Source: Escherichia phage phiEcoM-GJ1
DNA: 52,975 bases
Strand: one strand, 5' to 3'
Sequence record: NC_010106.1
Made by a program: the position numbers and the translations under genes. Under the pieces are notes generated by a model. That model saw nothing but the letters and a program-made list of their open reading frames with translations, was not told the origin of the DNA and searched no databases. This document shows, in pieces, positions 2,849 through 22,842 of this stretch (position 1 is its first letter; every line of letters starts with the position of its first letter).

Positions 2849-2860
2849 TTCCTAATATTC

Positions 2861-7135: not shown

Positions 7136-7516
7136 ATGGCACAATATTCAGACGTAAACACTGGCATCATCGGTTCCAATGGCTTCAAGAAAGACCCAAA
7201 ACATCCTGACGTTCGTGGACGTATTAACGTTGACGGAATCTGGTATTGGGTGTCTGGTTGGAACAAGCAAGCCAATGGTAATGAATTTACCTCGCTGGCA
7301 CTCACCATCATGACTCAAGAACAAGTTGATGAAATGATGCGTAAGCGTGAAGAGAAAGCTAAAGCCAAAGCTCAACCTCAAGCCGCCGCACAACAGCAAC
7401 GTCAGCAACCTTCTGCTGCACAGCAACAGCAAGCACCTACTCAACAGCAAGCTCCGCAGTCGTCTGGGTATAACCCAAATGAGCCGCAGGACTTTGACTC
7501 AGACATACCTTTCTAA
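7136..7516 (+). CDS. small protein with Q/A-rich linker and SSB-like C-terminal tip DFDSDIPF
   Basis: 126-aa ORF; the last 8 residues match the conserved acidic tail ending in IPF of bacterial SSB (E. coli SSB ends DFDDDIPF); the N-terminal ~70 aa are Trp-rich (IWYWVSGW). Confidence 0.6.
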   Translation: MAQYSDVNTGIIGSNGFKKDPKHPDVRGRINVDGIWYWVSGWNKQANGNEFTSLALTIMTQEQVDEMMRKREEKAKAKAQPQAAAQQQRQQPSAAQQQQAPTQQQAPQSSGYNPNEPQDFDSDIPF

Positions 7517-7637
7517 TTGGAGATGCCCTATGAAAATTTTATGTTTTATAGGGCTACATAATTGGGAAATTTCACATGAAAACGATTATGTAACCTTTTG
7601 GGTGTGCAGACACTGTTCAGCAATGCGTGAGGAATAT

Positions 7638-8328
7638 CATGGCAAATAGATTTGTTGAAATACCTGCCAATTTGGTCAAACCTGGTGATGTATTGGTTTA
7701 CGGCAACAGAGAATACCGGATTGAAAACATCCTACGGTTTAGTGATGCAGTTCAGTTGCAATATTCTGGTGGGTACTACAATTTTGAATTTGGCCGCATA
7801 GTCAAAGTGCTCGACAGGCCACCAGCTTTGGAAACTCCAACAGCAACATTCAACACACAGATAACACCAGTATTTCTTCCTTACGGGGAAGCAGTGAAAC
7901 CATTCTCAGATGAAGAGGATGTTAAAGGTGCTGATGTGGAAGTTGGCGATGTTATCTGGTTTAAGGGTAATTGGGCAACTGTTACAAATGTGTACAAGCA
8001 TCCAAATTCGCCATACAATAAAGTCAATATTGACCATGATGGTGTAAAAGGTTTGCAAGTGCGCCTGACATTAACTGGAACTTATTCGAGAAAGGTAAGA
8101 GCAGTAATGGAAACATTAAATATTCAAAATGCAATCGAAGCACAACGTATTCTTCTGCAAAAGCTGGAGCAAATGTTGGAATTAACCCAGCTTGCACCAA
8201 CAGGAGATGGCAAGATTGCAATTGGCAACTGTAACATTCGCGTGGACAAGGCATCAATCACTAAAGCCGCACGCGATGAAATGAAAGCTGCCGCAAGCAA
8301 ATCCGCAGAGCTTATCAAGAAGCTGTAA
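7638..8328 (+). CDS. hypothetical protein
   Basis: Long ORF; start chosen at ATG 7638 (MANRFVEI...) after GAGG. Confidence 0.55.
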
Positions 8329-8383
8329 TTAACAGAGGTCATTCCACTTCGAGTGGCCTCGATTAATTATCACTGGAGCATTT

Positions 8384-8734
8384 ATGAAAACTTTATACAT
8401 TGCACTTACAATTTTGTTTGGAGTATTCGCATTCAAATCAGAAGCGTCTGTTCGCAGCTTTCAGTGTGGCGGGTACAAAATGTCCGTTGAAACAATCACA
8501 ATGAGCCAGCCACTCATTGTAACAATTTCTTTGCACGAAGGTACTTGGATTGAGATTCCAGATAATGGAAATCCTAACCCAATGTCAACAGTGTTCTACA
8601 ATACACAGAGCAGTAAGCTGGCCTTAGTTGGTGTTGACGCTGAGGAACGTTTGGTGCTACAGATTTATCGTGACATTGACTTCTTTCATGCCAAATTTCC
8701 ATTGTTATCAACCTATTGTAAGGAAGTTAAATGA
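8384..8734 (+). CDS. secreted (signal-peptide) hypothetical protein
   Basis: N-terminus MKTLYIALTILFGVFAFKSEA has a basic n-region, hydrophobic core and A-x-A-like cleavage site; GGAG RBS. Confidence 0.55.
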   Translation: MKTLYIALTILFGVFAFKSEASVRSFQCGGYKMSVETITMSQPLIVTISLHEGTWIEIPDNGNPNPMSTVFYNTQSSKLALVGVDAEERLVLQIYRDIDFFHAKFPLLSTYCKEVK

Positions 8735-8964
8735 CGTCATCCGAATTTACCATTGATGGAGTTCAATACCTGCTGGAATCCGATTGCGAATATCGCCAAT
8801 GGGCAGTAATTCACGACCGAGTTGTAAAATACTTGGAACGTGTGGGTAAGGAAACTTCCAAATCCATGTTGTTTGAGGCAACAGTTCTAGGAACAACCTC
8901 AATCAATAAGGAATTAGTATCCTTCAAATTAACCATTCACCCTAGTGGAAATAATTTTCAATGA
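8731..8964 (+). CDS. hypothetical protein
   Basis: 77-aa ORF, translationally coupled. Confidence 0.5.
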   Translation: MTSSEFTIDGVQYLLESDCEYRQWAVIHDRVVKYLERVGKETSKSMLFEATVLGTTSINKELVSFKLTIHPSGNNFQ

Positions 8965-9236
8965 TTTCGATAGACCAAGTTCCTGTTGAACTAAGTAAGG
9001 CAAAAGGAAAGTTGGACAATGCCAAATCCGACTTGTCGGCCTTCGATTTAAATGCTCCAGTTGATAAAGTTAAAGTTTTCATCGACTGTATTAACGGATG
9101 GGTGCTTGTTGAGCATGCAGTCCTTAGAGCACTACTTGTTGACGAAGTTAACAAAGCTCAGGCAGCATTTGACGAGCTTGATGAACTCAACACACTGTTG
9201 AACAACACTTTAAACGATGCATTAAAGGGTAAATAA
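8961..9236 (+). CDS. hypothetical protein
   Basis: 91-aa ORF, translationally coupled. Confidence 0.5.
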   Translation: MISIDQVPVELSKAKGKLDNAKSDLSAFDLNAPVDKVKVFIDCINGWVLVEHAVLRALLVDEVNKAQAAFDELDELNTLLNNTLNDALKGK

Positions 9237-9631
9237 TGAATGTTAAGCTCGGCCAACGTTCTTTAGACCGACTTAAGGGAGTAAATCCTCCATTAGTTGC
9301 AGTTTTCAAACGGGCATGTGAAACCATGCCCTTTGATGTAACTGTTCTGGAGGGTTTACGCTCTTATGAACGTCAACAAGAGCTTTTAAAGCAGGGTGCA
9401 ACCAAAGTTTCTATTAGCCGACACATGTCAGGCAATGCTTTAGACATTGCACCATATCCAATTGACTGGAATGACCTCGAACGATTCCAAATTGTGGCTG
9501 AACACATGTTCAAAGCTGCAAAAGAGCTTGGAATTGTCATCCGATGGGGTGGAACATGGGAACGTTCATTCACTAAGCCAGTGAAATGGGCCAAGTTCCT
9601 TGATGCACCACACTTCGAACTTCCAGCATAA
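9236..9631 (+). CDS. peptidase M15-family protein (VanY/L-Ala-D-Glu peptidase-like), possible cell-wall hydrolase
   Basis: Zn-ligand pattern typical of M15 peptidases: SRHMSGNALDI and DAPHFEL; 131 aa; no signal peptide. Confidence 0.7.
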   Translation: MNVKLGQRSLDRLKGVNPPLVAVFKRACETMPFDVTVLEGLRSYERQQELLKQGATKVSISRHMSGNALDIAPYPIDWNDLERFQIVAEHMFKAAKELGIVIRWGGTWERSFTKPVKWAKFLDAPHFELPA

Positions 9632-9651
9632 CTTCATCAATGGAGCATCCG

Positions 9652-10197
9652 ATGGAAAACCAAATTATTCAAGCAGTAACACAGCTTAAGTCCTGGCGTA
9701 GAGATGAAACCTTATTGGTTCGTTTCTACACAGGCGAAAACAATTCTAAATTTGAAGATGTGTGGATTGATGGACTGTCTTGGCGTCTTTATGATTTCGA
9801 CATGTCAGAATATTTGCATGAAGATTATGGCATCGAGTATCCAGAAACAGGTACTTATGACATTCTCGAATCAAGTGAAGCAGATGTTACAGAAGTTTGC
9901 TTTGTTGATGGGTTATTCAGCATTCGCAGATATGACAAATTCAACGAACTGCTTACTGACACTGACTTGGATATAATTCTTGCTGCATTCCGTAGCGATG
10001 AAATTGACATTTTCACTGTTTACGACTTGAACGACATGTTCATCACACGTTGCGACTCAATTGTGGACTACTTCAAGCAAGACGATGGGATAGAAGTTCC
10101 TGAAAACCTGCGTCCGTACATTGATTGGGATGCGATTGCAAGAGATTACGGAAGTGATTACATCTTCTCTGAGGGAGTATTGTTCCGCAATGCGTGA
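9652..10197 (+). CDS. ArdA-like acidic protein, candidate anti-restriction DNA mimic
   Basis: Very acidic ~180-aa protein; C-terminal segment EVPENLRPYIDWDAIARDYGSDYIFSEGVLF resembles the conserved ArdA C-terminal region (recalled from memory); early-region position. Confidence 0.5.
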   Translation: MENQIIQAVTQLKSWRRDETLLVRFYTGENNSKFEDVWIDGLSWRLYDFDMSEYLHEDYGIEYPETGTYDILESSEADVTEVCFVDGLFSIRRYDKFNELLTDTDLDIILAAFRSDEIDIFTVYDLNDMFITRCDSIVDYFKQDDGIEVPENLRPYIDWDAIARDYGSDYIFSEGVLFRNA

Positions 10198-10429
10198 TTT
10201 AGCAATTAACGAAATTGAGGCTGGATTGATTGTTCACCACCAGCCTCGTAACACTTTCTATCGTATTCTTGGGCCTACAAAGATTAAAACCCACCCCGGA
10301 GATTGGGTAGACGGGTTTGCTTACCAGGAAGTGAAGAAATATGGGAATCACACTTTCTTGAGTATTGATTCTTCTACTATTTACACACGACCGAAAGAGC
10401 TATTCGACTCAGATTGGAAAACACTATAG
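10193..10429 (+). CDS. hypothetical protein
   Basis: In-frame internal ATG overlapping the previous stop (ATGCGTGA); the track ORF starts earlier at 10121. Confidence 0.4.
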   Translation, partial: RDLAINEIEAGLIVHHQPRNTFYRILGPTKIKTHPGDWVDGFAYQEVKKYGNHTFLSIDSSTIYTRPKELFDSDWKTL

Positions 10430-10497
10430 TTCCAGGCGGTTTCTTCGAAGTGCCAAGCGGGTTTTGTACTCGCATTGGCCTTCGGCTTTAGTCTGAA

Positions 10498-10518
10498 ACA
10501 TTAGTGGGATTTGATTCT
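10498..10518 (+). promoter_or_regulatory. conserved motif copy ACATTAGTGGGATTTGATT (variant)
   Basis: Shares the upstream TCTGAAAC with the copies at 10639 and 13124. Confidence 0.35.
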
Positions 10519-10638
10519 GACCTCTTAGGGAAGAAAGGCATTATACACTTATCGCCAAATGGGTGTCAAGCACTTTCTTCATTTATTTTAATTTATTCTT
10601 ATTATTCTTTTTGTTTGGAATATTGGAATAATTCTGAA

Positions 10639-10659
10639 ACATTAGTTGGAATTGAAGAA
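10639..10659 (+). promoter_or_regulatory. conserved motif copy ACATTAGTTGGAATTGAAG
   Basis: Second copy in the same ORF-free 600-bp interval. Confidence 0.4.
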
Positions 10660-11028
10660 ACAACATCAGATAAGAGCTTTGTAACTAGGTAGTCCGTCTG
10701 GTACCAAGACGTGTGAGAACGTTCGATTCGTTCTACAAAGCTCTTTTCGATGGAATGTTTCCATCATATACATTTATCTTTTAACATAGGCCAAAAGGGC
10801 CAGAATACTTATTCGCAGAAAAGCTATTCACTTGTTATAGGCGATGTATTGGGATGAATTGGTACAAGATACTGAGGCTTTTGGGGCCAATAGAACAGCA
10901 GGAGCCGTGATGCGGCAGACTCATCTGTATGCTTGTCATTCGCAAAATTTGTGTGGCCTTTGTTAATTGGTTTTGGAGAAAGTCCAACTCACAATTATAG
11001 ACCTAAGGCCAACATACAAGGAGCATAA

Positions 11029-11430
11029 ATGATAGTAACTCCAATAAAAGTTAAGAAGAGCAAATTATCTTTACAAGAGAGGACACTAAGAAGCACTATC
11101 AGAGGTATAACAGCAAATAGGATTTCATCTGGAGATATCCAGGCAAAGCCTTGTAGGGTGTGTGGAAGTACATTTGTTGAGGCCCACCATTGGGATTACA
11201 GAACATACAAAGTAATCTTCCTTTGTGCCAAACACCACGTCGAGTGGCATAACCGACAGCGGTACTTCGAGCATCTTAACACAGCGTATGGCATCAAATT
11301 CGTGCACAGACCCAAGCCATTCCGGTTTAAATGGGTGTGGGTGAAGAACCATATGGGCTATCGCCCGAGGCCGTCAGAGACGATGCCAAGCGTCATACGG
11401 CGTGGTCAAAAATTAATCAAGGTAATCTGA
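11029..11430 (+). CDS. HNH endonuclease
   Basis: CRVCGSTFVEAHHWDYRTYKVIFLCAKHHVEWHN: Cys pairs and His cluster typical of HNH nucleases; AAGGAG RBS. Confidence 0.75.
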   Translation: MIVTPIKVKKSKLSLQERTLRSTIRGITANRISSGDIQAKPCRVCGSTFVEAHHWDYRTYKVIFLCAKHHVEWHNRQRYFEHLNTAYGIKFVHRPKPFRFKWVWVKNHMGYRPRPSETMPSVIRRGQKLIKVI

Positions 11431-11611
11431 AAACGCAGCCAAACGTACCCAGAAGACCTAAAAATTTTGACAGTGCAGTTATCCAGAATTGACACAAACA
11501 GTAGGCAGTAGGCTGATTTTCGGCCTTCCTGCGCTACTCTGTGGCCTGTTTCATGGGCCAAAAGATGAGAAGAGAAGTCACAAACACTGAATCGAAAATT
11601 GGAGAGTTCCT

Positions 11612-11821
11612 ATGGTTCAAAAATACGGTGCAATTAATCACAAAAACTTTCAGTTTAAGGGCTACACAATTGAAGAACTGTTAGAACTTGTTGAAGGTTG
11701 GGAGAATAATGCAGAAGCAATAGGTAGTGACCTTTATGATATGACTGGTGACTTGGCTATTGGCCCTAAAATCATGCGCGACTTAATTGCCAAAATTAAG
11801 GAGTTGCAAAATGGTTCGTAA
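11612..11821 (+). CDS. hypothetical protein
   Basis: 69-aa ORF with GGAGAG RBS. Confidence 0.5.
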   Translation: MVQKYGAINHKNFQFKGYTIEELLELVEGWENNAEAIGSDLYDMTGDLAIGPKIMRDLIAKIKELQNGS

Positions 11822-12131
11822 GCATTCTGCTAAAGTTTTGACGTTGAGAAATGTTCTAATGTTCCCTTCAAGTGGGGAAGGAGAGGAAGAAACAATCCAC
11901 TTCGTTCTCGTTGGTGGGCGTTGGTACTATAACGGCACTAATTCTTTCCACGTAAGTCTGTCTGAGAAAGATGGATTCTGGAAACACACCTTTAAGGAGT
12001 TGCTGGAAAGCAGTGCCAACTACACCCTTGCCGAAGTTAAGAAATACTTCTACCTCGGACCAAACAAGTCCATGCAAATTGCAACTCGCGAATGGACAAC
12101 AAACCAACCAATTTACGGAGTTCCATTTTGA
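11811..12131 (+). CDS. hypothetical protein
   Basis: Start taken at ATG 11811 (MVRKHSAK...) after GGAG; the track ORF starts at 11787. Confidence 0.5.
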   Translation: MVRKHSAKVLTLRNVLMFPSSGEGEEETIHFVLVGGRWYYNGTNSFHVSLSEKDGFWKHTFKELLESSANYTLAEVKKYFYLGPNKSMQIATREWTTNQPIYGVPF

Positions 12132-12418
12132 ACTTACAAGACAAATCGAAAGAAGAGTTGATTGAGATTATCCAGAAAGAGCATGAACTCGCTGGCATCA
12201 CAATTAACTTTGAACTCCAGGCAATGCAAGCTGTTGCTTTGGGTCATGGCCTAATGGCTACACTCATTCATGCCAAGAATGTGTTAGGCGTTAACGACGA
12301 AAAATACCAAATTCTGGAGAAAGCTGCGCAAGAGCGGATTTCGCAGTGCTTGGTGACATTAGTTGATTTGGGAATCGACGCAGAAACTGCAAACAAACGT
12401 ATCCTACAAGGCCACTAA
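12128..12418 (+). CDS. hypothetical protein
   Basis: TTG start after GGAG, overlapping the upstream stop (TTGA); alternative ATG start at 12092. Confidence 0.4.
   Translation: MNLQDKSKEELIEIIQKEHELAGITINFELQAMQAVALGHGLMATLIHAKNVLGVNDEKYQILEKAAQERISQCLVTLVDLGIDAETANKRILQGH
12356..12376 (+). promoter_or_regulatory. conserved motif copy ACATTAGTTGATTTGGGAAT (variant, inside a coding region)
   Basis: About 45 bp upstream of the 12420 start codon. Confidence 0.3.
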
Positions 12419-12419
12419 A

Positions 12420-13094
12420 ATGTCTTATCATGATGATGACAAAGAGATTGCACTATCAACGTGTAAGCAATGGCTCAATGATAATGATGCCGTCTATCTT
12501 GCCAAGGAAGATGTTATCATTATGTGGGTCCATTTTAATCCAGAATCGAAGCGCGGTGAGTGGCAACGCTACAAGATGAAAGAGGCTTGTCGCATAATTA
12601 AAGCCACACGCGCTGGCTTCTCTGCTATGAAGTATATTAAGCCAGAGATGCTAATGCTTGCTGCACAGGAAGAAGAACGTGCATATAAGCAAGCTGTAAA
12701 ATCTCGTTCAACTGTTCCTCCAGAGTTCTTTAATTTGGAGCGCGCTGGACACTTCAACAATTTAGAAATGTTGACACTGTGCCTGTTGCAAGAATTAGTT
12801 GGAAGAGGACAAAACATTGAAGCTGTTTGTCTTGGAGAACTCATGAAAGAGTTGTTCTCGGCAAAGGGCTTTGCTGTGCCAAACCGAACTTTACGCTGGA
12901 AATTGTTGCGAGCAGTCGCGCAAGAAGCTGGTGTAGTTGTTCGTGACAGAACAAACCGACTCACTGTGACTGGAGTTGGGCGTTTTGTAGCAATACAGAT
13001 TGAGGGTTATGACGAATCAATCATCACTGAACTCACTGTCGCTGAGACAAAGGATTTAGTAAATAAAACACTAGAACGATTCAATAGATATTGA
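12420..13094 (+). CDS. hypothetical protein
   Basis: 224-aa ORF from ATG 12420 (MSYHDDDKEI...); the track ORF starts at 12363. Confidence 0.55.
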   Translation: MSYHDDDKEIALSTCKQWLNDNDAVYLAKEDVIIMWVHFNPESKRGEWQRYKMKEACRIIKATRAGFSAMKYIKPEMLMLAAQEEERAYKQAVKSRSTVPPEFFNLERAGHFNNLEMLTLCLLQELVGRGQNIEAVCLGELMKELFSAKGFAVPNRTLRWKLLRAVAQEAGVVVRDRTNRLTVTGVGRFVAIQIEGYDESIITELTVAETKDLVNKTLERFNRY

Positions 13095-13123
13095 GTCGTT
13101 TGACGAATCAGAGCAGTTCTGAA

Positions 13124-13144
13124 ACATTAGTTGGATGTGGAAAG
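13124..13144 (+). promoter_or_regulatory. conserved motif ACATTAGTTGGATGTGGAAAG (candidate phage-RNAP promoter)
   Basis: 93 bp upstream of the codon-optimised 13219 gene. Confidence 0.45.
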
Positions 13145-13218
13145 AGAAAGGCTCTTTAATTTTTATCTAAGTCACGTCACCGTGGCGTGCAAAACTATTC
13201 AATATAAGGTATATACAA

Positions 13219-13557
13219 ATGGCTAAGATTGTAACCGTAACTCAGTACGAAGCTAACGATGGTTCCCTGTTCCTGACCGAAGCAGAATGTAATGCGCATG
13301 ACTTCAAACTGGAAAACGGTGCTAAAATTGAGAAAGCTGCCGAAGCGTACCTGAACACCGTTGGCGCTATCGACCGTTCTCGCTCCATGCAGAAGAACAC
13401 CATCGAGCAGTTCCTGGCATTCTACCTGCCGTGGGTTGAAGCTGGTGAGCCGGAAGTTGAGCGTACTAAGTTCGATACTCCGAAAGAAGCTAAAGTTGCT
13501 GACGCAAGTGTTGCCGAAGCTGCCGAAGCTGCTGTTGAAGAAGCTCCGGTATTCTAA
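13219..13557 (+). CDS. hypothetical abundant protein with acidic/Ala-rich C-terminus ending in F
   Basis: 112-aa ORF, AAGG RBS; CTG/CCG/CGT-rich codon usage resembling host highly expressed genes; ends ...AEAAVEEAPVF. Confidence 0.65.
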   Translation: MAKIVTVTQYEANDGSLFLTEAECNAHDFKLENGAKIEKAAEAYLNTVGAIDRSRSMQKNTIEQFLAFYLPWVEAGEPEVERTKFDTPKEAKVADASVAEAAEAAVEEAPVF

Positions 13558-14455
13558 GTTGCCGATGGCAAACTTGAGAGACTAAGCTAAATCGATCTGG
13601 CACGCACTGGAAGATTTCCGGTGCTGCCTTGAATCCATTCCGAGTGAGTGGGTTTCAATTTGTGCATAATCCAAACACCATTGCATGAGCCTTCGACGGA
13701 AGGCAATGTTGGGAAATTTGTTGTGTACAAATTGAAGTAGTTTTCTGAGTCTTACGACGGGCCTAAACTGCCTGAAGTTATTGCGACTGTTTTAAACACT
13801 AAACACAAGTGCAAATGATTCTGAAATGCGAGTTGCGGCTTAATTAAATTTAAGTCCTCTCCGTGGTCTTCCAATCCCATGTAACCAAATTTGGCGCATT
13901 GTGGCTTCGAGATGTGATTAATAAATCGGAGCAATAATTAATTTGTATTCTGCGATGCAATGCAGGCTTAAGTCCCTCAGTGCGCGTAGGGATGTGACAG
14001 AGTACAAACTTAATTATGCAGTTGGATATTTCTAGAGGACGGACGAGCACACTGGAATGTCTTCAATTGGTTTAGTGTGAGAAGCTATGCCAATGTGAAA
14101 CGTAACTCCTTGGGGAAGTGCTCCTCTGGATTTCCCTCCACACAGGAATCTCAAGCCTGTGGCAGCGACTTCGAAGCTGCACTGCGTAACCTAATTCACC
14201 CTAAAGTGAGTTGCCCTGAGCATGGAAATAAACTGCTCATAACCGATGGTATCTACAAAGGTAGATTAAATCAGGTTGCCTGTTGGTACTTGGGTTCAAC
14301 ACCTGCTTGCACTCGCAAAGTAGTGCCTCGTACCTGAGATGAAGTGAGTCGGGACCATCAATCCCACGTTATGTCAAAACACAGTAGGCGACTCACGGAT
14401 TCTACAAGCCTCGCAGTTCGGGAAAACCTGCGTTATCAAAACCCCCTTATTCTTT

Positions 14456-14550
14456 GGACGAGTAGCTCAGAAGGTTTGCATTGTGCTCAGTCAGGTAGAG
14501 CAATCTGTTCGACAGATGTGTCGTTGGTTCGAATCCAACCTTGTCCGCCA
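14456..14550 (+). tRNA. tRNA-like element, non-canonical (possible degenerate or interrupted tRNA)
   Basis: Acceptor stem GGACGAG/CTTGTCC (one G-U), T-arm GTTGG-TTCGAAT-CCAAC, discriminator G plus CCA; TAGCTCAG and TCAGGTAGAGC D-arm halves are separated by a 20-nt insertion that duplicates GCTCAG; the anticodon-arm region forms a hairpin with only a 5-nt loop, so no anticodon can be assigned. Confidence 0.35.
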
Positions 14551-14575
14551 CTCTCAACAACAACATGGAGTCCTC

Positions 14576-14716
14576 ATGGACATTGATGCATTAGACAATT
14601 TGGACTTCGGTGCTGCCGAAGAAGCAATTGAAGAACTCAAGAAGAAGCAGGACGAAGAAGCAATCGTTCCTGGTGCTGGCGATAATGACTGCTCAAGCGG
14701 TGCGTGTGCCATCTAA
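14576..14716 (+). CDS. hypothetical small acidic protein (46 aa)
   Basis: ATG 5 nt after GGAG, directly downstream of the tRNA-like element. Confidence 0.3.
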   Translation: MDIDALDNLDFGAAEEAIEELKKKQDEEAIVPGAGDNDCSSGACAI

Positions 14717-14724
14717 GGTGATTT

Positions 14725-14961
14725 ATGCAACAGCTTAAATCAATAGTTCTTGGCGTCCTGACTGCATTTGGTATTCTTATTGCAGTGTTCCTCAAAGGCA
14801 AAAGCTCAGGCAAAGCCGAGGAGCGTCAGGAAGCCACAGAGAAGCAACTAGATTCATTAAAAGAATCTATCGAGATTAAATCGCATGTTCAGAAAGAAGT
14901 GTCTAGCAGTTCTGATAGCAATGTCGATAGTGAGTTGCTCTCAAAGTGGGTTCGTAAGTGA
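14725..14961 (+). CDS. small membrane protein with N-terminal TM helix and charged helical tail (i-spanin-like or other bitopic membrane protein)
   Basis: AAGGTG RBS; IVLGVLTAFGILIAVFL hydrophobic segment, then a K/E-rich region. Confidence 0.5.
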   Translation: MQQLKSIVLGVLTAFGILIAVFLKGKSSGKAEERQEATEKQLDSLKESIEIKSHVQKEVSSSSDSNVDSELLSKWVRK

Positions 14962-15094
14962 TTATTGCTTAATTGCACAGCCAATATATTTGGATGTTGC
15001 AGAAGTGAAAATCTTATCACGCGAAACCAAAACACAGATTTTAGTCCACAATGAAACGTGGGCACAAAAGTGTTCTCAACTTACCCGACAGTGA
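14885..15094 (+). CDS. predicted lipoprotein (o-spanin-like or Llp-like), overlapping the 3' end of the upstream ORF in another frame
   Basis: MFRKKCLAVLIAMSIVSC: basic n-region, hydrophobic core and lipobox-like IVSC; starts inside the 14725 ORF in the +1 frame. Confidence 0.4.
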   Translation: MFRKKCLAVLIAMSIVSCSQSGFVSDYCLIAQPIYLDVAEVKILSRETKTQILVHNETWAQKCSQLTRQ

Positions 15095-16027
15095 GTGAAC
15101 AAATGCTCGCCATCGCATTTCATTTGGCAGTCCGGTACGGGACTTTAAACACACGTACATCATAGTCGAGGGAGTGCGCGACTTTAAATAACGAGACTCT
15201 AACCACTTGTGGTATGGTAGGTGTAATTCCTGCAAGTTGCTCTGGGCATAACAATTGAAATTGCTGCCTCGCATTGAACGCGAGAAAGTTCAGGTAGTCA
15301 CTTCCTAGAACAGTGGCCGGGAACAGACCTAGACAAAAGTGCTTGAGAACGTTAGCTCTGTCTTGCCAGCATTAATGGCACGTTGGCCGCGTAAAGGCCA
15401 CAGCGTCTGACCAACGTATCGGTCACCAAATTCAATGGATTCGTAGAGTTAATTAAACCTGCACGATGGGATAGGGATGAAGCATCCGAGGCCGACTGTG
15501 TAATTGTGAACGTGGAGTTCACCGAATCCGCCAAATCAATGGGCTAGTGCAAATGTCAGTCACTAGAAGATGTGTTGCAAAACGTCTTCCATGATGTGCA
15601 AAGTGTCAGTCACGTGCCCACCACTTTCCTAACAGTTATGCCTCTGTTCAAAAGGCTCAAGAGAGCGTCTGGCATACCGTAGCGATACGGCTTAGTTGCG
15701 CTGATTGTGTTGTGCAGAAAGAAAGTTCAGGCTTTCGTTTGGGTTACTCCTCATCCCGAAGTTAGCTGGATTCAAAATCCAGACTATGTTCCTATACACA
15801 TGAAATATGCAAGTCGAGGGTTCTTAATGTTCAAACATGATGCGAGCATTAAGCGGGTTTATACTTTTCCCGATGGTCCCCATAAACAAGGCTGATTCAC
15901 TTGGGCGGTTCGAATCAAATTTAATAAGTGTCTTGGCCGCAGTGGAAACATCATTTAAGCCAATGTATTGTAATGTTCGTAATAGTCCACGTCAGGACAC
16001 TTACTTAAATTTTAACTGGAGAGAAAC

Positions 16028-16258
16028 ATGAAAACTGCTGAAATTGCCGAAGAGATTTATAAGGCTGTAATAGCCAGTCAAATTACCAGTGAAGTCCTGC
16101 ACATGGATATTGAAGAAGTTCGCAATGCCTTTGGCGGTTTTGCAATCTTGTCAATAGAAGCTGCGGAAGCACTGACAAACACGTACAACCATCGTGAATA
16201 CGAGAAGCGGTCTGTACTAAATGCGTCGCTAAAAGAAATTCAGGCGTCATTAAAATAA
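16028..16258 (+). CDS. hypothetical protein
   Basis: 76-aa ORF with GGAGAG RBS. Confidence 0.55.
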   Translation: MKTAEIAEEIYKAVIASQITSEVLHMDIEEVRNAFGGFAILSIEAAEALTNTYNHREYEKRSVLNASLKEIQASLK

Positions 16259-16314
16259 TACCATTATCATGGTGCGGAGCTAATTTATCTCCCACCATAT
16301 GAACCGGAGAGCAA

Positions 16315-16965: not shown

Positions 16966-16985
16966 TAGTTGAAGGAGGTCTGGCG

Positions 16986-17429
16986 ATGAAGCTAGCCAAA
17001 AGCTATATATATAAGGTCGCCAGCACCCGAACACTTACTTGGACCCTCAATGGTAAAGGTTATTTGTCTGCAACCATGCGATATAATAATCACAAATATA
17101 CTATTTATAAACATGTCCTAGTATTCTTTATTCATAATGGGTACGTTCCAGAAGAGGTTGACCACATTGATGGCAACACATTGAATAATGAACCGAGCAA
17201 CCTCAGAGACTCTACTCGCTCGCAAAATTGCAGCAACAGGAAAGTGTTCTCTAATAACGCTCTCGGTGTAAAAGGCGTCCGTAAAGTAGGTAACTCTTAC
17301 CAGGTAAGAGTCTGCCACAACGGTAAGACAACGTATATGAGGGCTTCTTCACTGGAAGAGGCCCAAATTATGTCCAAAAGAATAAGGCAATCTCTGCACA
17401 AGGAGTTCGCCAACGAAGGTAAAATCTAA
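16986..17429 (+). CDS. HNH-AP2 homing endonuclease (copy 1 of 3)
   Basis: HNH core HVLVFFIHNGYVPEEVDHIDGNTLNNEPSNLR followed by an AP2-type DNA-binding segment GVKGVRKVGNSYQVRV...; GGAGG RBS. Confidence 0.8.
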   Translation: MKLAKSYIYKVASTRTLTWTLNGKGYLSATMRYNNHKYTIYKHVLVFFIHNGYVPEEVDHIDGNTLNNEPSNLRDSTRSQNCSNRKVFSNNALGVKGVRKVGNSYQVRVCHNGKTTYMRASSLEEAQIMSKRIRQSLHKEFANEGKI

Positions 17430-19192
17430 TGAATATTAAACAATGCGTCGCGAAGATAAAGCACGATGTACCTGGTTGTAAATCTACGTCTGGAAAATCT
17501 TTGCAAGTTTGGGTTAATACAGACGAATCTGGAAACACATCATATTCTGGATTTTGCTTTGCATGTGGTGTTCTTGTTCCAAATCCATATGGAACAGATG
17601 CAGAGAAGTTTCCCGAAGTCCATATCAAGACGCCAGAAGAGATTCAGGCAGAGGTGGATGAAATAACATCTTGCCCTCCACTTGATTTGGACCACAGAGG
17701 CATAGAGCCTGAGTTTTGGAAGGCTGCTGGTGTGAGGCTGTTGTATTCTGAATACGACGGGAAAACGCCCAACGCATTGGCTCACGGGTATACCAAGAAT
17801 GGTAAACTTGTACGTTGGAAAATCAAATTACTAAATAAGAAGGTTATGTGGTCAGTTGGGGATACTCAAGATAATGACCCATATAACTTTATGGCTGCGA
17901 AGGCCATTGGAGGTAAGACATTATTCATTACCGAAGGTGAAGAAGATTGTATTGCTCTCCGTCAAATCCTTAAAACAATGAATCGTGGCAGTGCTTATGA
18001 AGACCTCGACTTTGCTGTTATTAGCTTAAGTGATGGCAGTAGCTCTGTGCATAAATGCCTTTCTCGTGTTGCAGAAGAAATCAAGCAACGTTGGGAGCAG
18101 GTTGTTATCGTATTTGATGACGATGAACCTGGACGTAAAGCTGCCAAAGAAGCGTGTCGATTGTTGCCTGGTGCAATGATTGCAACACTTCCAGCTAACG
18201 ATGCTAACGATTGTTTGAAGCGTGGCTTGCTCAAAGCTACTCAATCTGCTGTTGTGTTCCGTGCTGCCCGTCCTCTTCCTACAGCACTTGTCAACAAAGA
18301 ACTTCTTATGGAAGAGCTTGATGATGAGGTTGAGCAGGGTGTGGATTATCCTTGGCCCAAGTTAACCGACTTAATGTTTGGTCAACGTCGAGCCGAAGTT
18401 ATTACAATCGGTGGTGCAGAAGGTGGTGGTAAAACTACCTTGTCCCGTCAGATTGTGCATCACAACATTACCAAGCACGATTGGGGAGTGTTTACTGCAT
18501 ACATGGAGGAAACTCCTACAGAAACACTGCGCCGAATGGCTGGCCTTAATGACAACTTGCCATATTGGGAACCTGCGTTTACTCGTGAAGACCCTCGATA
18601 TGATGAAGCTAAGTTCCGTCAAACTGCTGCGAAGATGCTTCGTAACATGGAGATTTGGGACCGCAAGCAAGCTGGAGAAGACCCTTATGAAACCTGGGAT
18701 GGGTTAAAGACGATTCTTCGTCAGATTGGACCAGACATTGATATGTTTGTCCTTGATAACTTAACCTACTTATCGGAAGGGATTTCTGCCTCAGAGAAGA
18801 ACGACTTCTTAGGTAAGCTGTATGCAGATATTACTAAGCTGGCAGACCAATACCAGTTCCATGTGAATATCTTGTCGCACCTCAACCCTGTGGCAAAAGG
18901 TCAGCGACCTCATGAAGATGGCGGACGAATCAAGAAGTCAGACTTTACTGGCTCTCGTGCTGCTGCTAAATATTCTCATGGTATGTTTGGCTTTGAGCGT
19001 AATAGCCAGGCAGTTGACCCAAACTGTTCTATTATTCGTTCCATCAAAGCTCGTAAGAGTGGTAAAACAGAAGGCTTCAAGACGTATTATGACACCGAAT
19101 CTGGTCGAATTATTCAACGTTCTTGGGATGACTCTCTGTTCGAAACTAAAGAGATTGTTCAACTTACTAAGAAGAACGGTCCACACCAATAA
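17429..19192 (+). CDS. DNA primase/helicase (T7 gp4-like)
   Basis: N-terminal Cys cluster (CFACG), TOPRIM motifs FITEGEEDCIAL and IVFDDDEPGRKAA, Walker A GGAEGGGKTT, Walker B-like MFVLDNL. Confidence 0.9.
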   Translation: MNIKQCVAKIKHDVPGCKSTSGKSLQVWVNTDESGNTSYSGFCFACGVLVPNPYGTDAEKFPEVHIKTPEEIQAEVDEITSCPPLDLDHRGIEPEFWKAAGVRLLYSEYDGKTPNALAHGYTKNGKLVRWKIKLLNKKVMWSVGDTQDNDPYNFMAAKAIGGKTLFITEGEEDCIALRQILKTMNRGSAYEDLDFAVISLSDGSSSVHKCLSRVAEEIKQRWEQVVIVFDDDEPGRKAAKEACRLLPGAMIATLPANDANDCLKRGLLKATQSAVVFRAARPLPTALVNKELLMEELDDEVEQGVDYPWPKLTDLMFGQRRAEVITIGGAEGGGKTTLSRQIVHHNITKHDWGVFTAYMEETPTETLRRMAGLNDNLPYWEPAFTREDPRYDEAKFRQTAAKMLRNMEIWDRKQAGEDPYETWDGLKTILRQIGPDIDMFVLDNLTYLSEGISASEKNDFLGKLYADITKLADQYQFHVNILSHLNPVAKGQRPHEDGGRIKKSDFTGSRAAAKYSHGMFGFERNSQAVDPNCSIIRSIKARKSGKTEGFKTYYDTESGRIIQRSWDDSLFETKEIVQLTKKNGPHQ

Positions 19193-19253
19193 CAGAGCTG
19201 CTACGCTGCATGGTTCGCCCACCAGCGTGGCCCTCGTCAACATGGATTAAGTA

Positions 19254-19739
19254 ATGTCCGATGAACAAAAGATTTCTCTGTGGCGAAGTATGTTTTCCTA
19301 CACAGAGGATGGTAAACTTTACAGGAAGATGGAGTCCGGCAAGTTGAAACTTGTTGGTAGCCCTTGTGGACGAGATAAACTCTATCTTAATGTGCGTGTC
19401 GGGAAGTCATTCGAGTACGTGCACCGGATTATCTTTGGGATGCACTATGGATTCTTGCCAAAGCAAGTTGACCATAAGGTGGGATTTGATAACTCACCAA
19501 GCAATCTTCGTGCGGCAGACAACCAACAGAACAATTGCAACGTTGTCAGAAAACTTGGCGCAGTGCCTTTCAGAGGCGTATCCAGAATGAAGAATGGTAC
19601 GTTTGTAGCCAGGATAAGAAACGGAAATTCGAGGATATACATTGGGACTTTCCCAACTGCCAAACAGGCTGCTTTAGCATACAACGAATTTGCAATAAAA
19701 CTCCACGGAGAGTTTGCGATAATCAATAGGAACATATAA
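19254..19739 (+). CDS. HNH-AP2 homing endonuclease (copy 2 of 3)
   Basis: HRIIFGMHYGFLPKQVDHKVGFDNSPSNLR ... GVSRMKNGTFVARIRNG; inserted between primase-helicase and DNA polymerase. Confidence 0.8.
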   Translation: MSDEQKISLWRSMFSYTEDGKLYRKMESGKLKLVGSPCGRDKLYLNVRVGKSFEYVHRIIFGMHYGFLPKQVDHKVGFDNSPSNLRAADNQQNNCNVVRKLGAVPFRGVSRMKNGTFVARIRNGNSRIYIGTFPTAKQAALAYNEFAIKLHGEFAIINRNI

Positions 19740-21673
19740 TGCTCTATCCTTGGGAAAATATGTATGCCAGTGACATTGAAACAACTGGCCTGTTGGAGCA
19801 AATGCGCAAGCAAGCTGCACCACGTCTTCACAACATCGGATATATTGATGTTCTGACTCGTGAAGAAACTGTAATAGAGTGGACCGACAGAAAGTCTATC
19901 CAGGCATTTCTGGATACAGGCCCAACATTAATCATGCACAACGGCGCAACCTTTGACTTTGAGGCACTGAGGTTCCTGGGCTACGACGTTTCAAAATGTA
20001 CACTAATTGATACTTTGTTTATCAGTTGGTATCTGCAACCTCGTCGTGTTAAGCACGGCTTAGAAGGTTACGGCGAAGAGTTTGGTGTGCCAAAACCAGT
20101 CATTGAAGATTGGGAAAATCAAACTCAAGAAGAGTACAACCATCGTGTGATGGAAGACTGCAAGATTCAGTTGAAGCTGTGGGAACAGCAATACATTCAA
20201 CTCTTGAAGATTTATAAATCTCCTAGCGAAGTTAAACGCTTCGTTGAATACCTGATGACAAAAGCTCGTCAACAAGTTATTCAACAACGTACTCGCTGGA
20301 AGCTGAACATTGAGAAGGCATTGGCATTTAAGGCCAAGCTGGAACCAATGATTAAAGAGAAGACCGACGCATTGGAAGCATCAATGCCGCGTATTCCAGA
20401 ATATGTAATCAAGACCCGTCCAGCCAAATGCCACAAAATGAACGGACAATTGTCTGCCACTGGTATTAAGTGGAAAGCTGTTTGTGATGCAAACGGTTTA
20501 GACTGGAAAGACCCAGACTTAGCTATCAAAGTCCTGAAGGGTTATAAGGAACCAAACGCTGGTTCTCACGTACAGATTAAAGATTGGCTGTTTAGCTTAG
20601 GCTGGGAGCCAGAAACATTTAAGTTTGACCGCAATAAGGAAACAGGTGAGACTCGCCAGATTCCTCAAATCACTGTGAAGGATGAAGATGGCAATCCTGA
20701 AATATGTCCAAGCCTCCATAAGTTGGCAGAAAGAAACCCCGAATCTGGTATTCAACATCTTATTGGGATGGGCGTGTATAAACACCGTCTCTCTGTTGTT
20801 AATGGTTTTCTTCGCGACGTCGATGAAGACGGATACCTTACTGCACGATGCGGTGGCCTTACCAATACTTTACGCCTTAAACACCGCGAACTTGTTAACC
20901 TCCCTTCTATTCGTGTATTTGGCGGTGAAGAACTTCGTTCAATGCTGGAAGCGTGGCGCGAAGACTACGAACAGTTAGGTTCTGACTTGTGTTCCCTGGA
21001 AGACCGTTGTAAGCACCACTTCCAATGGATGTATGACCCTGAATACGTTAAGAAGCAGTTGGCACCAGACTATGATGCTCACCTTGCAATCGGCGTAATT
21101 GGTGGATTTATTACCGAACAGGAATCTCAGGACCACAAGGACGGAATTAAGAAGTGTAAACAACGTCCAATGTTTAAGACCACAAACTATGCTTGTCAGT
21201 ATGGTGCTGGTGTACCAACTGTAGCTCGTTCTGCGGGCTGTGACCAGACTACTGCTGCACGACTGCATAAAGCATATTGGGACTTGAACTGGTCTATCAA
21301 AGAGATTGCTGCGAACACCAAAGTTATCACAGTTGATGGTCAGATGTGGCAACAGAATCCAGTAAACAAGTTCTGGTATTCGTTGCGTACAGAGAAAGAC
21401 CGCTTCTCCACATTGTGTCAGGGCACTGGTGCATATGTGTTTGATATTTGGTGTAACAACATCATTGCAATTTGTAATGAACGTTGGGGATGTGACCCGC
21501 TTCTGTCTGGACAATTCCACGATGAATTGATTCTCCAGGTTAAGAAAGGCTTCCGAGATTTGTGGACGGACTTACTTAATGAAGCAATGGACCGAACCAA
21601 CAAAGAACTTAAACTCAATCGTGATTGTGCATGTGATGTACAATTTGGCGATAACTACGCAGAGATTCACTAA
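19739..21673 (+). CDS. family A DNA polymerase (T7 gp5-like) with 3'-5' exonuclease domain
   Basis: Exo I motif YASDIETTGL; polymerase motif A-like DLCSLEDR, motif B KTTNYACQYGAG, motif C QFHDELIL. Confidence 0.9.
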   Translation: MLYPWENMYASDIETTGLLEQMRKQAAPRLHNIGYIDVLTREETVIEWTDRKSIQAFLDTGPTLIMHNGATFDFEALRFLGYDVSKCTLIDTLFISWYLQPRRVKHGLEGYGEEFGVPKPVIEDWENQTQEEYNHRVMEDCKIQLKLWEQQYIQLLKIYKSPSEVKRFVEYLMTKARQQVIQQRTRWKLNIEKALAFKAKLEPMIKEKTDALEASMPRIPEYVIKTRPAKCHKMNGQLSATGIKWKAVCDANGLDWKDPDLAIKVLKGYKEPNAGSHVQIKDWLFSLGWEPETFKFDRNKETGETRQIPQITVKDEDGNPEICPSLHKLAERNPESGIQHLIGMGVYKHRLSVVNGFLRDVDEDGYLTARCGGLTNTLRLKHRELVNLPSIRVFGGEELRSMLEAWREDYEQLGSDLCSLEDRCKHHFQWMYDPEYVKKQLAPDYDAHLAIGVIGGFITEQESQDHKDGIKKCKQRPMFKTTNYACQYGAGVPTVARSAGCDQTTAARLHKAYWDLNWSIKEIAANTKVITVDGQMWQQNPVNKFWYSLRTEKDRFSTLCQGTGAYVFDIWCNNIIAICNERWGCDPLLSGQFHDELILQVKKGFRDLWTDLLNEAMDRTNKELKLNRDCACDVQFGDNYAEIH

Positions 21674-21945
21674 TGCAAACTGTATATTCCATCTTTGATA
21701 TGCAAGAGTCAGAGCACCATATGTTTGCCACTGATTCCGAAGTTCCTTCAAAGGACGCTGTAATTGCGTTCCTTGAAAAGATTAAGGACAAAGTTTTCGC
21801 TTCGTCCGACCCACAGTCTCAAGCATTTAACGATGAGACATTTAAAAGCCTCCAAACTTTAATTTCGGCAACGTCTTCATTTGAAGAGCTGTCCGAAGCA
21901 TTAGTTGGATATGACTTCCGACTTGCTATGTTGCAGGTCGACTAA
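21673..21945 (+). CDS. hypothetical protein
   Basis: 90-aa ORF overlapping the polymerase stop (TAATG). Confidence 0.55.
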   Translation: MQTVYSIFDMQESEHHMFATDSEVPSKDAVIAFLEKIKDKVFASSDPQSQAFNDETFKSLQTLISATSSFEELSEALVGYDFRLAMLQVD

Positions 21946-21975
21946 CTCCTAAACTGAAATTTAAAGGTACTCAAA

Positions 21976-22842
21976 ATGGCATTTGCTGCTCCTACACTGG
22001 CCTCGAACAAGACTCCTTCTGCTGCACCATTACTGGAAGCGGGTGGTTATCCTGCTCGTGTTTGCCGTATTATCGACCTGGGCTTACAGCCTGGTTCTGC
22101 TAAATATCCTACTCCTTCCTTGAAACTTCTGGTGACTTTCGAACTGCTCGACGAGTACATGAAAGAAGTTGACAGTGAAGGTAAAATGGTCATGGTTCAA
22201 GACCCAGACGAAGATGACGGCATCATGATGGCGAAGAATCTTGAAGATAAGCCGCGTTGGTTTGACTTTGAGTTTACCTATAATGCTGACGGCTTCATGG
22301 GTGAGAACTCCCACATCTACAAATTCGCCAAGGCGATTGATGCACTGGAAGTTAAACCTAATCTGGAACAAGGTATTCAGGGCCATCCTGCCAAGAACCT
22401 GCCGGATTGGTTGGGCGAACCTCTGATTGTTGGCATTGTTCAATATACCAAGCAGTCCGGCAAGAATGCTGGTCAGGTTGCGAACAAGGTTGCTACCTTC
22501 TCTCCGATGAAGTCCAAAGAGAAGAAAGAAGCTAAAGCTCTGGTGAACCCGACTGTATTCTTCGACATGTCTGAGCCAGACCTGGAAGTATTCAACAAGC
22601 TGCCTGGTGGCGAATCTCCGTATGCAATCAAGAACCGTATTACTTCCGGTGTTGATTTCTACAAGACTAAGCTGTCTGCACTGTTAGGCGGTAAACCTGC
22701 CGATGAAGGTGCTGTACCGAATCAGGCTTCTGATGAAGAAGTTGATGCAGCTATGAAAGCTGAACTGGAAGCACAGGCTGCTGCAAAAGCACAGCGTGAA
22801 GCGGAAGGTGGTGCTGCTGGCGGTACAGGTATGCCGTTCTAA
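21976..22842 (+). CDS. hypothetical abundant protein (possible ssDNA-binding or replisome accessory protein)
   Basis: 288-aa ORF with host-optimal codon usage, followed by a strong terminator; Ala/Gly-rich C-terminus ending GMPF; the function is a guess from context only. Confidence 0.6.
   Translation: MAFAAPTLASNKTPSAAPLLEAGGYPARVCRIIDLGLQPGSAKYPTPSLKLLVTFELLDEYMKEVDSEGKMVMVQDPDEDDGIMMAKNLEDKPRWFDFEFTYNADGFMGENSHIYKFAKAIDALEVKPNLEQGIQGHPAKNLPDWLGEPLIVGIVQYTKQSGKNAGQVANKVATFSPMKSKEKKEAKALVNPTVFFDMSEPDLEVFNKLPGGESPYAIKNRITSGVDFYKTKLSALLGGKPADEGAVPNQASDEEVDAAMKAELEAQAAAKAQREAEGGAAGGTGMPF

Follow-up and report, generated by a model that had tools for sequence, protein, structure and literature searches.

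Three proteins of Escherichia phage phiEcoM-GJ1 with conserved aromatic C-termini on variable tails: candidate SSB-type docking motifs

Results

Three C-termini with a fixed phenylalanine

The DNA analysed here (the window) is a stretch of 52,975 nucleotides (nt) of Escherichia phage phiEcoM-GJ1 (NC_010106.1). It covers almost the whole genome of a myophage of the Chaseviridae, with the taxonomy taken from the record of phage ST32. The near relatives of the window are Escherichia phages ST32 and Bp7 (84-90% coverage, ~90-93% nucleotide identity), and all of its genes lie on the + strand. Three of its products, called proteins 1, 2 and 3 below, end in phenylalanine. Their counterparts in ST32 are gp19, labelled 'single strand DNA binding protein; no experimental evidence', and gp32 and gp42, both hypothetical. 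The three genes and their parts are as follows.

7136-7516, + strand: protein 1, 126 amino acids (aa), a mini-SSB-like product (SSB, a protein binding single-stranded DNA), named from PHROG matches and an SSB-like tail
7136-7330, + strand: N-domain of protein 1, residues 1-65
7331-7489, + strand: Gln/Pro/Ala-rich linker of protein 1
7490-7513, + strand: tip of protein 1, DFDSDIPF
13219-13557, + strand: protein 2, 112 aa, small helical protein, phrog_17419
13219-13488, + strand: folded part of protein 2 with the conserved segment VERT.FDTPK, residues 1-90
13489-13554, + strand: acidic Ala/Glu/Val-rich tail of protein 2
13546-13554, + strand: tip of protein 2, P-V-F
21976-22842, + strand: protein 3, 288 aa, predicted oligonucleotide/oligosaccharide-binding (OB)-fold SSB-like protein, named from an AlphaFold2 (AF2) model, the tail and the gene position; beta-barrel core at about residues 23-176
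22732-22809, + strand: helix 253-278 of protein 3
22831-22839, + strand: tip of protein 3, M-P-F, closing a Gly/Ala-rich end

The translations end in ...NEPQDFDSDIPF, ...AAVEEAPVF and ...GGAAGGTGMPF, exactly as the original prediction had described them. Among the 72 plausible + strand products, seven have a C-terminal F against 2.8 expected (P=0.023), and PF or PxF closes four of them, where 0.21 would be expected (P=6e-5; P=1.3e-3 if only the three proteins are counted). The fourth of these, the product of the open reading frame (ORF) 11787-12131 (...NQPIYGVPF), was rejected as a further member of the group. Its ending is common to ST32 but not to the Y2 homologue (...GDCS), and its codon adaptation is low (rank 42 of 71).

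Conservation is stronger evidence than the motif count. The last residue is F in 41 of 45 homologues of protein 1 and in 84 of 88 of protein 2, and F, W or Y in 117 of 120 of protein 3; the homologues without a terminal aromatic residue are mostly visibly truncated, chimaeric or extended sequences. Past residue 82 of the protein 2 alignment the terminal Phe is the sole invariant column, the 20-30 residues before it being hypervariable, and all 83 close homologues of protein 3 (83/83) end in -P-F after a variable tail. A comparison with phages Y2, PM1, Myduc and VPs20 served as a proteome-wide control. The last residue is constant in some other families too (DNA polymerase, ligase, major capsid protein, virion protein 37136-37591), but there the whole C-terminus is conserved, and the combination of a drifting tail with a fixed Phe was found only in proteins 1, 2 and 3. 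When the enterobacterial relatives were filtered for a terminal aromatic residue on an acidic stretch of 15 residues, the protein 1 and protein 2 orthologues were found in each of them.

The terminal-Phe pattern is real and not due to chance. That three unrelated proteins merely happen to end in Phe, by coincidence or as an artefact of composition, could be argued from their different tail compositions and exact motifs (DIPF, PVF, MPF). The motif counts stand against this, as does the absence of any other such family from the control proteome, and the near-invariance of the terminal aromatic residue over hundreds of homologues with drifting linkers effectively refutes it, leaving a negligible probability.

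A terminal aromatic residue is kept after variable residues in a structural protein too. The baseplate-hub-like product of 42023-43132 (+ strand) ends in ...AMESF, and its orthologues in ...EGEGF, ...TEVEF and ...GLEVW.

Protein 3, a predicted OB-fold protein beside the DNA polymerase

Protein 3 gave no match to Pfam or to PDB sequences, either alone or as a profile. Its PHROG family, phrog_862, has no assigned function, and the annotated phage records that match it say hypothetical in 170 of 170 cases. The AF2 model, built from 48 homologues, is confident (predicted local distance difference test, pLDDT, 88) and consists of the barrel core, accessory helices, helix 253-278 and a disordered end, with residues 282-288 below pLDDT 50. 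A Foldseek search against viral models returned mostly uncharacterised phage proteins together with two labelled DUF669 (E ~1e-5), and it is only at this level of the fold that protein 3 is linked to DUF669. A profile search of 1.84 billion cluster representatives retrieved 4,382 relatives, 1,693 of them at E<=1e-10.

Tail statistics were taken from 128 full-length, mutually diverse representatives of the family. A terminal W, F or Y is present in 97 of them (76%), against an aromatic background of 7.9%, and about 15 more have an aromatic residue at -2. Pro occupies -2 in 65/128 and D or E occupies -4 in 91/128, and the last 15 residues hold on average 5.5 acidic and 0.6 basic residues. On these sequences, the family signature is [DE]-x-P-[WFY]-COOH on an acidic tail. 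Protein 3 combines a predicted OB-fold-like core with a C-terminal aromatic residue on a flexible tail, and its family with a tail that is acidic and aromatic-ended.

The protein 3 gene is part of a replication module of T7 type, with a primase-helicase like gp4, a PolA polymerase, a 5'-3' exonuclease and, at 24439-25194, a ligase; the following of its genes concern us here.

12363-13094, + strand: conserved function-unassigned protein, ~224-243 aa, phrog_13087, always before protein 2
17429-19192, + strand: T7 gp4-type primase-helicase (Pfam Toprim and DnaB_C/AAA_25; ST32 annotation), candidate docking partner
19739-21673, + strand: PolA-type DNA polymerase (ST32 gp40), candidate docking partner
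22876-23913, + strand: 5'-3' exonuclease in a T7 gp6-like position (Pfam 5_3_exonuc_N, phrog_107), candidate partner of protein 3

The 243-aa protein, protein 2, primase-helicase, DNA polymerase, protein 3 and exonuclease are syntenic in both Chaseviridae subfamilies, with a variable insert between protein 2 and the primase-helicase, and the order DNA polymerase, small ORF, protein 3, exonuclease is likewise kept in both. The 243-aa protein itself, for which PDB and NCBIfam searches gave no match, precedes protein 2 in Y2, PM1, Myduc and VPs20. The primase-helicase ends in ...KKNGPHQ and has no acidic Phe tail. The neighbour annotated as 'ATP-binding', 25085-25813, was considered as a Sak4-like partner and ruled out, as it is a deoxynucleoside monophosphate kinase.

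From the predicted fold, the tail and the gene position, protein 3 is probably the gp2.5-like SSB analogue of the phage and a member of a large unrecognised OB-fold family. The sole significant named sequence link is to NCBIfam NF046043 (59.6 bits, E 2.8e-16, below the curated cut-off of 75 bits). The name 'phage replication initiation protein, NGO0469 family' traces to weak BLAST matches of 2007 and has no experimental origin. These matches were with a nanovirus Rep (26% identity, 109 aa) and with a phage primase (32%, 87 aa; PMC1931599), and the name was discarded as a clue to function. Given the predicted OB-fold and the SSB-type tails, we suggest that this family name is misleading. Homology to gp2.5 (or DUF2815), or a fold in common with them, was looked for and not found.

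The tip of protein 3 varies in charge between clades. In the clade that has both proteins 1 and 3 the mean net acidity of the last six residues is 0.30 (n=83), against 2.45 elsewhere (n=130), and -P-F is retained in both groups. The neutrality of the tip is suggestive of a division of labour with protein 1, although it concerns one clade and may stem from a single event.

The same residues bear on the idea that the tails act mainly within their own molecule, as autoinhibitory DNA mimics that occupy the groove for single-stranded DNA (ssDNA) and tune its affinity with no partner being recruited. T7 gp2.5 and E. coli SSB are documented cases of such autoinhibition (PMC12339929; PMC5928155), and the tails are acidic at family level. 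In the known systems, however, it accompanies partner docking and is no substitute for it. Moreover, protein 2 has no evident DNA-binding groove, the AF2 models leave the tails undocked on the core with low pLDDT, and the strict retention of -P-F on the non-acidic tip of protein 3 points to a hydrophobic pocket rather than to charge mimicry. We consider autoinhibition very unlikely to be the main function of the tails.

A homologue of protein 3 with 94.6% identity is encoded in GenBank PP952070.1, 'Staphylococcus phage Pel53', together with a protein 2 homologue. This record is labelled as a phage of Staphylococcus hyicus; it is likely that the host label is wrong or that the isolate was contaminated.

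Protein 1, a small aromatic-rich domain with a host-type tip

Protein 1 matches phrog_7364 (E 6.7e-46, residues 1-91) and phrog_18154 (E 6.5e-15), both named 'single strand DNA binding protein', a label that is an annotation and not a tested function. Its N-domain of ~65 aa is rich in aromatic residues, with W36, Y37, W38, W42 and F51 invariant in the homologue alignment. When compared with E. coli SSB by hhalign, only the last 18 residues align (97% probability); the tail of the SSB query agrees with the PDB profile match. The protein 1 profile matches PDB 1eqq and 7f2n over the linker and tip only. The Pfam model for SSB, PF00436, gave no match even at E<=10 in 20 members of the family. TIGR00621 reached 20.5 bits over residues 40-126, below its cut-off of 53.95, and the NCBIfam SSB models remained far below their cut-offs. 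A by-eye idea that the N-domain is a homologue of the OB-fold of E. coli SSB is unsupported by hhalign and Pfam. What protein 1 does have is a disordered linker with an acidic SSB-type tip, on a domain in which no PF00436-homologous OB-fold was found.

The homologues end in DIPF (34/45) or EIPF (4/45), and the window protein in ...QDFDSDIPF. Some orthologues end in ...PPMDFDDDIPF and are identical to the host SSB over 11 residues. A search of 5,426 E. coli genomes showed no nucleotide similarity between the protein 1 gene and ssb, with the reservation that the low-complexity filter of BLAST may mask weak similarity, and this argues against a recent capture of the tail from the host.

The same architecture occurs beyond the Chaseviridae. 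In Vibrio phage VP5, gp29 is one protein of 158 aa (locus L010, 1501-1977) with two tandem copies of the N-domain followed by ...NEPPMDFDDDIPF. A single copy is followed by ...SEPPMDFDDDIPF in Klebsiella phage K21lambda1 and by ...PPADLDDDLPF in Acinetobacter phage SH-Ab 15497. The mini-SSB gene abuts the DNA polymerase gene in all three phages, and the VP5 and SH-Ab 15497 proteins match the same PHROG families as protein 1. Since the N-domain and the SSB-type tip recur together in these phages, protein 1 belongs to a minimal SSB-like family that always bears a bacterial-type tip. The tandem duplication in VP5 suggests that the ~60-aa unit folds and binds as a module of its own, and ssDNA binding by protein 1 is likely, though putative. 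Literature searches on the mini-SSB of PurZ phages gave nothing specific. On tracking of the host by the tip, as in the Acinetobacter phage (...DLDDDLPF), they gave DDDLPF for Gram-positive SSBs only, and we make no claim in this respect.

With such a tip, protein 1 could be mainly a host-directed decoy or hijacker instead of a working part of the phage replisome, which is partly compatible with a docking function of the tails. A high-copy host tip would titrate or redirect ExoI, RecQ, PriA, Ung and the chi subunit, and the outcome would be that host replication restart and repair are shut down or that the phage DNA is protected. The tip is essentially host-identical (DFD[SD]DIPF vs MDFDDDIPF), the N-domain is very small with DNA binding only putative, and the gene is situated in the early region outside the replication block and is absent from the subfamily Nefertitivirinae. 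In addition, protein 3 already supplies an SSB-like protein, and its non-acidic tip in the protein 1 clade fits a split of roles, but that contrast comes from the single clade mentioned above. In VP5-, SH-Ab 15497- and K21lambda1-type phages, on the other hand, the mini-protein gene is the immediate neighbour of the DNA polymerase gene, a place that suits a replicative SSB, and the strictly conserved Trp, Tyr and Phe residues suggest base stacking on ssDNA. Taken together, a mainly host-directed role is unlikely, though not without weight.

Three metagenomic homologues of protein 1 (P0124, P0126 and P0141) run past the usual end with ...DIPFAPIGLQEGRRYLHCI. This extension, which has no simple match to the window sequence downstream of 7516, would bury the terminal Phe; it may have arisen in assembly or mark a real variant lineage.

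Protein 2, a small helical protein of the replication block

The AF2 model of protein 2 (pLDDT 78) shows a short beta-hairpin and two long helices (residues 1-74), the VERT.FDTPK segment and a disordered tail (residues 90-112, pLDDT ~50). By BLAST, protein 2 is confined to enterobacterial Chaseviridae. A homologue in Vibrio phage VPs20 (hhalign 91.6%, E 8e-7) was reached through a weak second PHROG match, phrog_27050, and from there the family reaches all Aeromonas, Shewanella and Vibrio members. The VPs20 gene (locus L005, 9866-10297) lies ~550 nt upstream of the primase-helicase gene. It is unannotated in the VPs20 record, which is sparse, with 39 features in 53.8 kb. On sequence and synteny, protein 2 is a core replication-block protein throughout the Chaseviridae.

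The last five residues of protein 2 are typically EAPVF, EQPLF, GDPVF, EPAVF or AQDLF, and the tails of the sister subfamily end in ...AQDLF, ...EEDLFAE, ...SEDLFGA and ...SDDLFQ. As the Phe is followed by zero to two residues across the subfamilies, the conserved element is acidic-[L/V/M]-F at the C-terminus or at most two residues from it. Classical SSB-tip pockets require a free C-terminal carboxylate. Since the Phe of protein 2 need not be terminal, its pocket probably needs no such carboxylate, and protein 2 need not act like an SSB tip.

These tails invite comparison with the motif that binds the beta sliding clamp, Q-phi-x-[L/M]-[F/L] with the consensus QL[SD]LF, which is often C-terminal, tolerates residues after the Phe and favours acidic flanks (PMC11139829). 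The protein 2 tails, x-[P/D]-[L/V/M]-F, are alike in being often extremely C-terminal and acidic in their flanks. In the last two positions the Phe is invariant, preceded by L or M in many members and most commonly by V. Positions 1 and 2 of the motif, Gln and an aliphatic residue, are usually lacking. Protein 2 might accordingly be proposed as a host-takeover factor, either a clamp ligand that blocks host replication or borrows the clamp, or an acidic protein of the DNA-mimic or anti-restriction type. Its codon adaptation is the highest in the window, above that of the probable major capsid gene, which would suit a stoichiometric inhibitor; its fold is not recognisably DNA-binding; and the sister-subfamily tails resemble the last three positions of QL[SD]LF. 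A clamp ligand would be less expected to lack the Gln and the aliphatic second position, and to have Val so often at position 4. Host takeover also sits poorly with a gene that is fixed in the replication block near the primase-helicase in both subfamilies, and with the separate ArdA-like anti-restriction gene (9640-10197) that is already present. We regard it as distinctly unlikely.

Expression signals

The original prediction had called the three proteins abundant. The codon adaptation index, calculated with the E. coli weights of Sharp and Li 1987, is indeed high for protein 2 (0.72, rank 1 of 71) and protein 3 (0.51, rank 4) and lower for protein 1 (0.35, rank 14); the probable major capsid gene has 0.63. 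High expression of the three is plausible from codon usage and the sequence motifs described here. A 15-nt motif, CATTAGTTGGATGTG, has 13 matches with at most three mismatches in the window against 2.0 expected, a number reached in none of 100 shuffles, and three of the five best copies are found 63-80 nt upstream of the three Phe-tail genes. A hairpin also follows each of these genes (RNAfold; terminator scan).

7047-7061, + strand: promoter-like motif CATTAGTTGGATGTG, exact, 75 nt upstream of the protein 1 start codon
13125-13139, + strand: promoter-like motif CATTAGTTGGATGTG, exact, 80 nt upstream of the protein 2 start codon
21899-21913, + strand: promoter-like motif CATTAGTTGGATATG, one mismatch, within the 90-aa ORF 21673-21945 and 63 nt upstream of protein 3
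572, 2900, 3836, 7047, 10499, 10640, 13125, 21899, 26984 and 41983, + strand: starts of copies of the motif CATTAGTTGGATGTG, which lies upstream of several genes
7525-7554, + strand: hairpin GCCCTATGAAA...TTTTATAGGGC just past the protein 1 stop codon, RNAfold -16.5 kcal/mol for a 62-nt stretch
13555-13576, + strand: weak hairpin overlapping the protein 2 stop codon, found by RNAfold and missed by the terminator scan
22853-22868, + strand: terminator-like hairpin GGCTCCTTCGGGAGCC after protein 3, with a T-rich run behind it, found by both the terminator scan and RNAfold

In ST32, Y2, PM1 and Myduc the orthologues of proteins 1 and 2 have the motif upstream as well. Upstream of protein 3 it is present in ST32 and not recognisable in Y2, PM1 and Myduc. 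CATTAGTTGGATGTG is probably a phage promoter. No description of a similar motif was found in the literature searched, and nothing specific on SSBs and promoters of Chaseviridae.

The x-P-F and x-V-F ends could also be degrons through which proteases keep abundant early or middle proteins short-lived. E. coli SSB, which has the same tip, is a stable protein, and this counts against degrons; the high codon adaptation likewise argues for accumulation and not for turnover. The LPF end of SsbA is a recognition tag for ClpXP in some Streptococcus mutans strains, but E. coli ClpXP ignores green fluorescent protein or SsbA tagged with DDDLPF (PMC5143411). We hold a degron function to be highly improbable.

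Other features of the window

A phage RNA polymerase is encoded at 655-2601 according to the ST32 annotation, and the motif copy at 572 lies upstream of its gene. The copies at 2900 and 3836, among the best, lie in an ORF-poor stretch, 2848-3944, of ~1.1 kb that is almost ORF-free; further ORF-poor stretches are 10200-11029, 13557-14340 and 14961-15837. A scan of these stretches with Rfam at gathering thresholds found no RNA family besides tRNA.

A tRNA-Leu (anticodon CAG) at 14456-14550 (+ strand) is unusually long, 95 nt (ARAGORN and Rfam). It overlaps the mechanically called ORF 14344-14586, which for that reason is probably no gene. The same region holds other tRNAs in relatives, tRNA-Cys in PM1 and tRNA-Arg in Myduc.

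Two HNH endonuclease genes, 16986-17429 and 19254-19739 (both + strand), flank the primase-helicase gene, the second having an AP2 domain as well. Neither has a counterpart in ST32, Y2, PM1 or Myduc, and a recent insertion of homing endonucleases is the probable origin of both. The relatives do keep a third HNH gene, 23925-24449.

Discussion

Proposed function of the tails

The three tails may be disordered and serve, through their conserved aromatic end, as short linear docking motifs like those of bacterial SSB and T7 gp2.5 and gp4, a reading towards which we lean slightly. As in T7, a partner would have a hydrophobic pocket in which the aromatic end anchors the tail. Protein 3 would most likely be the phage's own replicative ssDNA-binding protein, a functional analogue of T7 gp2.5, with its -P-F serving phage enzymes (polymerase, exonuclease or helicase). 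The aromatic-rich domain of protein 1 would probably bind ssDNA, and its tail, a copy of the linker and tip of the host SSB, would display the host docking signal on phage ssDNA. It could recruit host SSB-binding enzymes or compete for them, or alternatively engage the same phage enzymes as protein 3. Protein 2, probably very abundant, would dock by its Ala/Glu-rich acidic tail ending in [P/D]-[L/V/M]-F and act as an adaptor or a competitor.

Several results weigh against this reading. The three tails differ chemically, being Gln/Pro-rich with an acidic tip in protein 1, Ala/Glu-rich in protein 2, and a helix followed by a Gly/Ala-rich end in protein 3, so that they are probably not one uniform set. 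The tip of protein 1 is that of the host, and its partners may therefore be host proteins rather than the phage replisome. The 'SSB' database label of the protein 1 family may be largely derived from the tail, and its domain of ~65 aa has no detectable homology to the OB domain of E. coli SSB, which has 112 aa. For protein 2, no DNA-binding or otherwise assignable fold was recognised in the AF2 model, and the Phe is not strictly terminal in distant homologues, where one or two residues follow it. The assignment of protein 3 as an SSB draws on a predicted fold, the tail and the gene position, and its tip in the window phage is not acidic, though -P-F is kept. Against PF05037 (DUF669) the window protein gave no hit, and the family gave 1/48 at E 0.0046 and then 0/54; sequence kinship to N4 gp45 or HK620 SSB was rejected, with an hhalign probability of 0.1% each. 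On the side of the candidate partners, no Sak4-like ATPase is found in the genome, and the front basic patch of T7 gp5 (K587-R599) falls in a gap of the window polymerase, in a BLASTP alignment (22% identity over 354 aa) whose quality is low, so that the window polymerase may have a different patch. High abundance is read from codon usage and sequence motifs, and docking and the choice of partners are argued from analogy.

The original prediction had proposed that SSB-type docking tails make the three proteins a set of replisome-docking factors. The first half is supported by analogy for proteins 1 and 3, and well supported for protein 1, in which the last 18 residues correspond to the SSB tip and the PHROG matches are SSB-named. 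The second half is not supported, as the T7 patch is not conserved in the polymerase, the primase-helicase is tail-less and the tails are chemically unlike.

A bolder form of the docking reading, which we hold to be rather unlikely as a whole, is that three abundant proteins of enterobacterial Chaseviridae, each with an insulated tip, have divided an 'SSB-tail hub' among themselves. The mini-SSB with its host-identical tip would plug phage ssDNA into the host SSB interactome, or block that interactome; the ancestral OB-fold SSB would have lost the acidity of its tip and become phage-specific; and protein 2 would be a helical 'free tail carrier' that does not bind DNA, is made in the largest amounts and acts in solution, as a competitor or an adaptor, on a hub pocket such as the host beta-clamp cleft or an SSB-tip pocket. 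If this were true, protein 2 would represent a new class of phage decoys or adaptors for hub pockets, and the family of protein 3, with more than 4,000 cluster representatives and no Pfam model, would be a major unrecognised family of phage SSBs.

The principle of a flexible tail whose terminal aromatic anchor recruits partners is already textbook knowledge for E. coli SSB and T7, and what is new here are the carriers. The thousands of members of the protein 3 family, spread over Chaseviridae and numerous further phage groups, become candidate OB-fold SSBs with the C-terminal signature [DE]-x-P-[WFY]. In the protein 1 family, a tiny aromatic-rich module with a host-type tip may serve as an SSB beside polymerase genes, including those of PurZ/DpoZ phages. 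Protein 2 has the strongest codon adaptation in the genome, and the Phe of its tail offers a handle for finding its partner. Should the tips have separate host and phage specificities, the three proteins would provide a compact model of how a phage partitions or hijacks SSB-hub interactions.

Comparison with known systems

E. coli SSB ends in ...MDFDDDIPF behind a disordered Gly/Gln/Pro-rich linker. Protein 1 is alike in its Gln/Pro/Ala-rich linker and its tip, and the terminal Pro-Phe is also kept in protein 3. Unlike in E. coli SSB, the domain of protein 1 occurs in one or two tandem copies in its relatives.

DUF669 proteins have been proposed as SSBs with acidic tails (Kazlauskas et al., PMC4889955), and in the DUF669 SSB of HK620 the last six residues, NDYPPF, recruit Sak4 (Hutinet et al., PMC5928155). 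Protein 3 likewise has a predicted OB-fold-like core and a tail ending in an aromatic residue after Pro, but it has no significant sequence relation to the DUF669, HK620 and N4 SSBs, and no Sak4 is encoded in the window. The N4 SSB (gp45) ends in ...SLFGKK, unlike protein 3. DUF669 phages are reported to have no second SSB (PMC4889955), whereas here protein 1 would be a second SSB-like protein. Another protein to be compared is PrgE of plasmid pCF10 (PDB 8s4s), an atypical OB-fold DNA-binding protein with 12% identity to protein 3. According to what its report describes, PrgE has 128 aa in the crystal and binds ssDNA and double-stranded DNA as filaments (PMC11137577). Protein 3 differs from it by extra helical elements and a long tail.

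In T7, the tails of gp2.5 and gp4 both dock on the gp5 polymerase (PMC12339929), and the terminal Phe of gp2.5 is essential according to references within that paper; in the T7 record gp2.5 ends in ...EDGDF and gp4 in ...NDTDF. The tail of gp2.5 is acidic, whereas the tip of protein 3 in the window phage is not, and protein 3 shows no sequence or top-ranking structural similarity to gp2.5. In T7 the helicase gp4 is tailed; in the window phage it is not the primase-helicase but the small helical protein 2 that has a tail. Nevertheless, protein 3 would be of similar role to gp2.5 and is of approximately its size, and here as in T7 several proteins of the replication module carry flexible tails that end in Phe.

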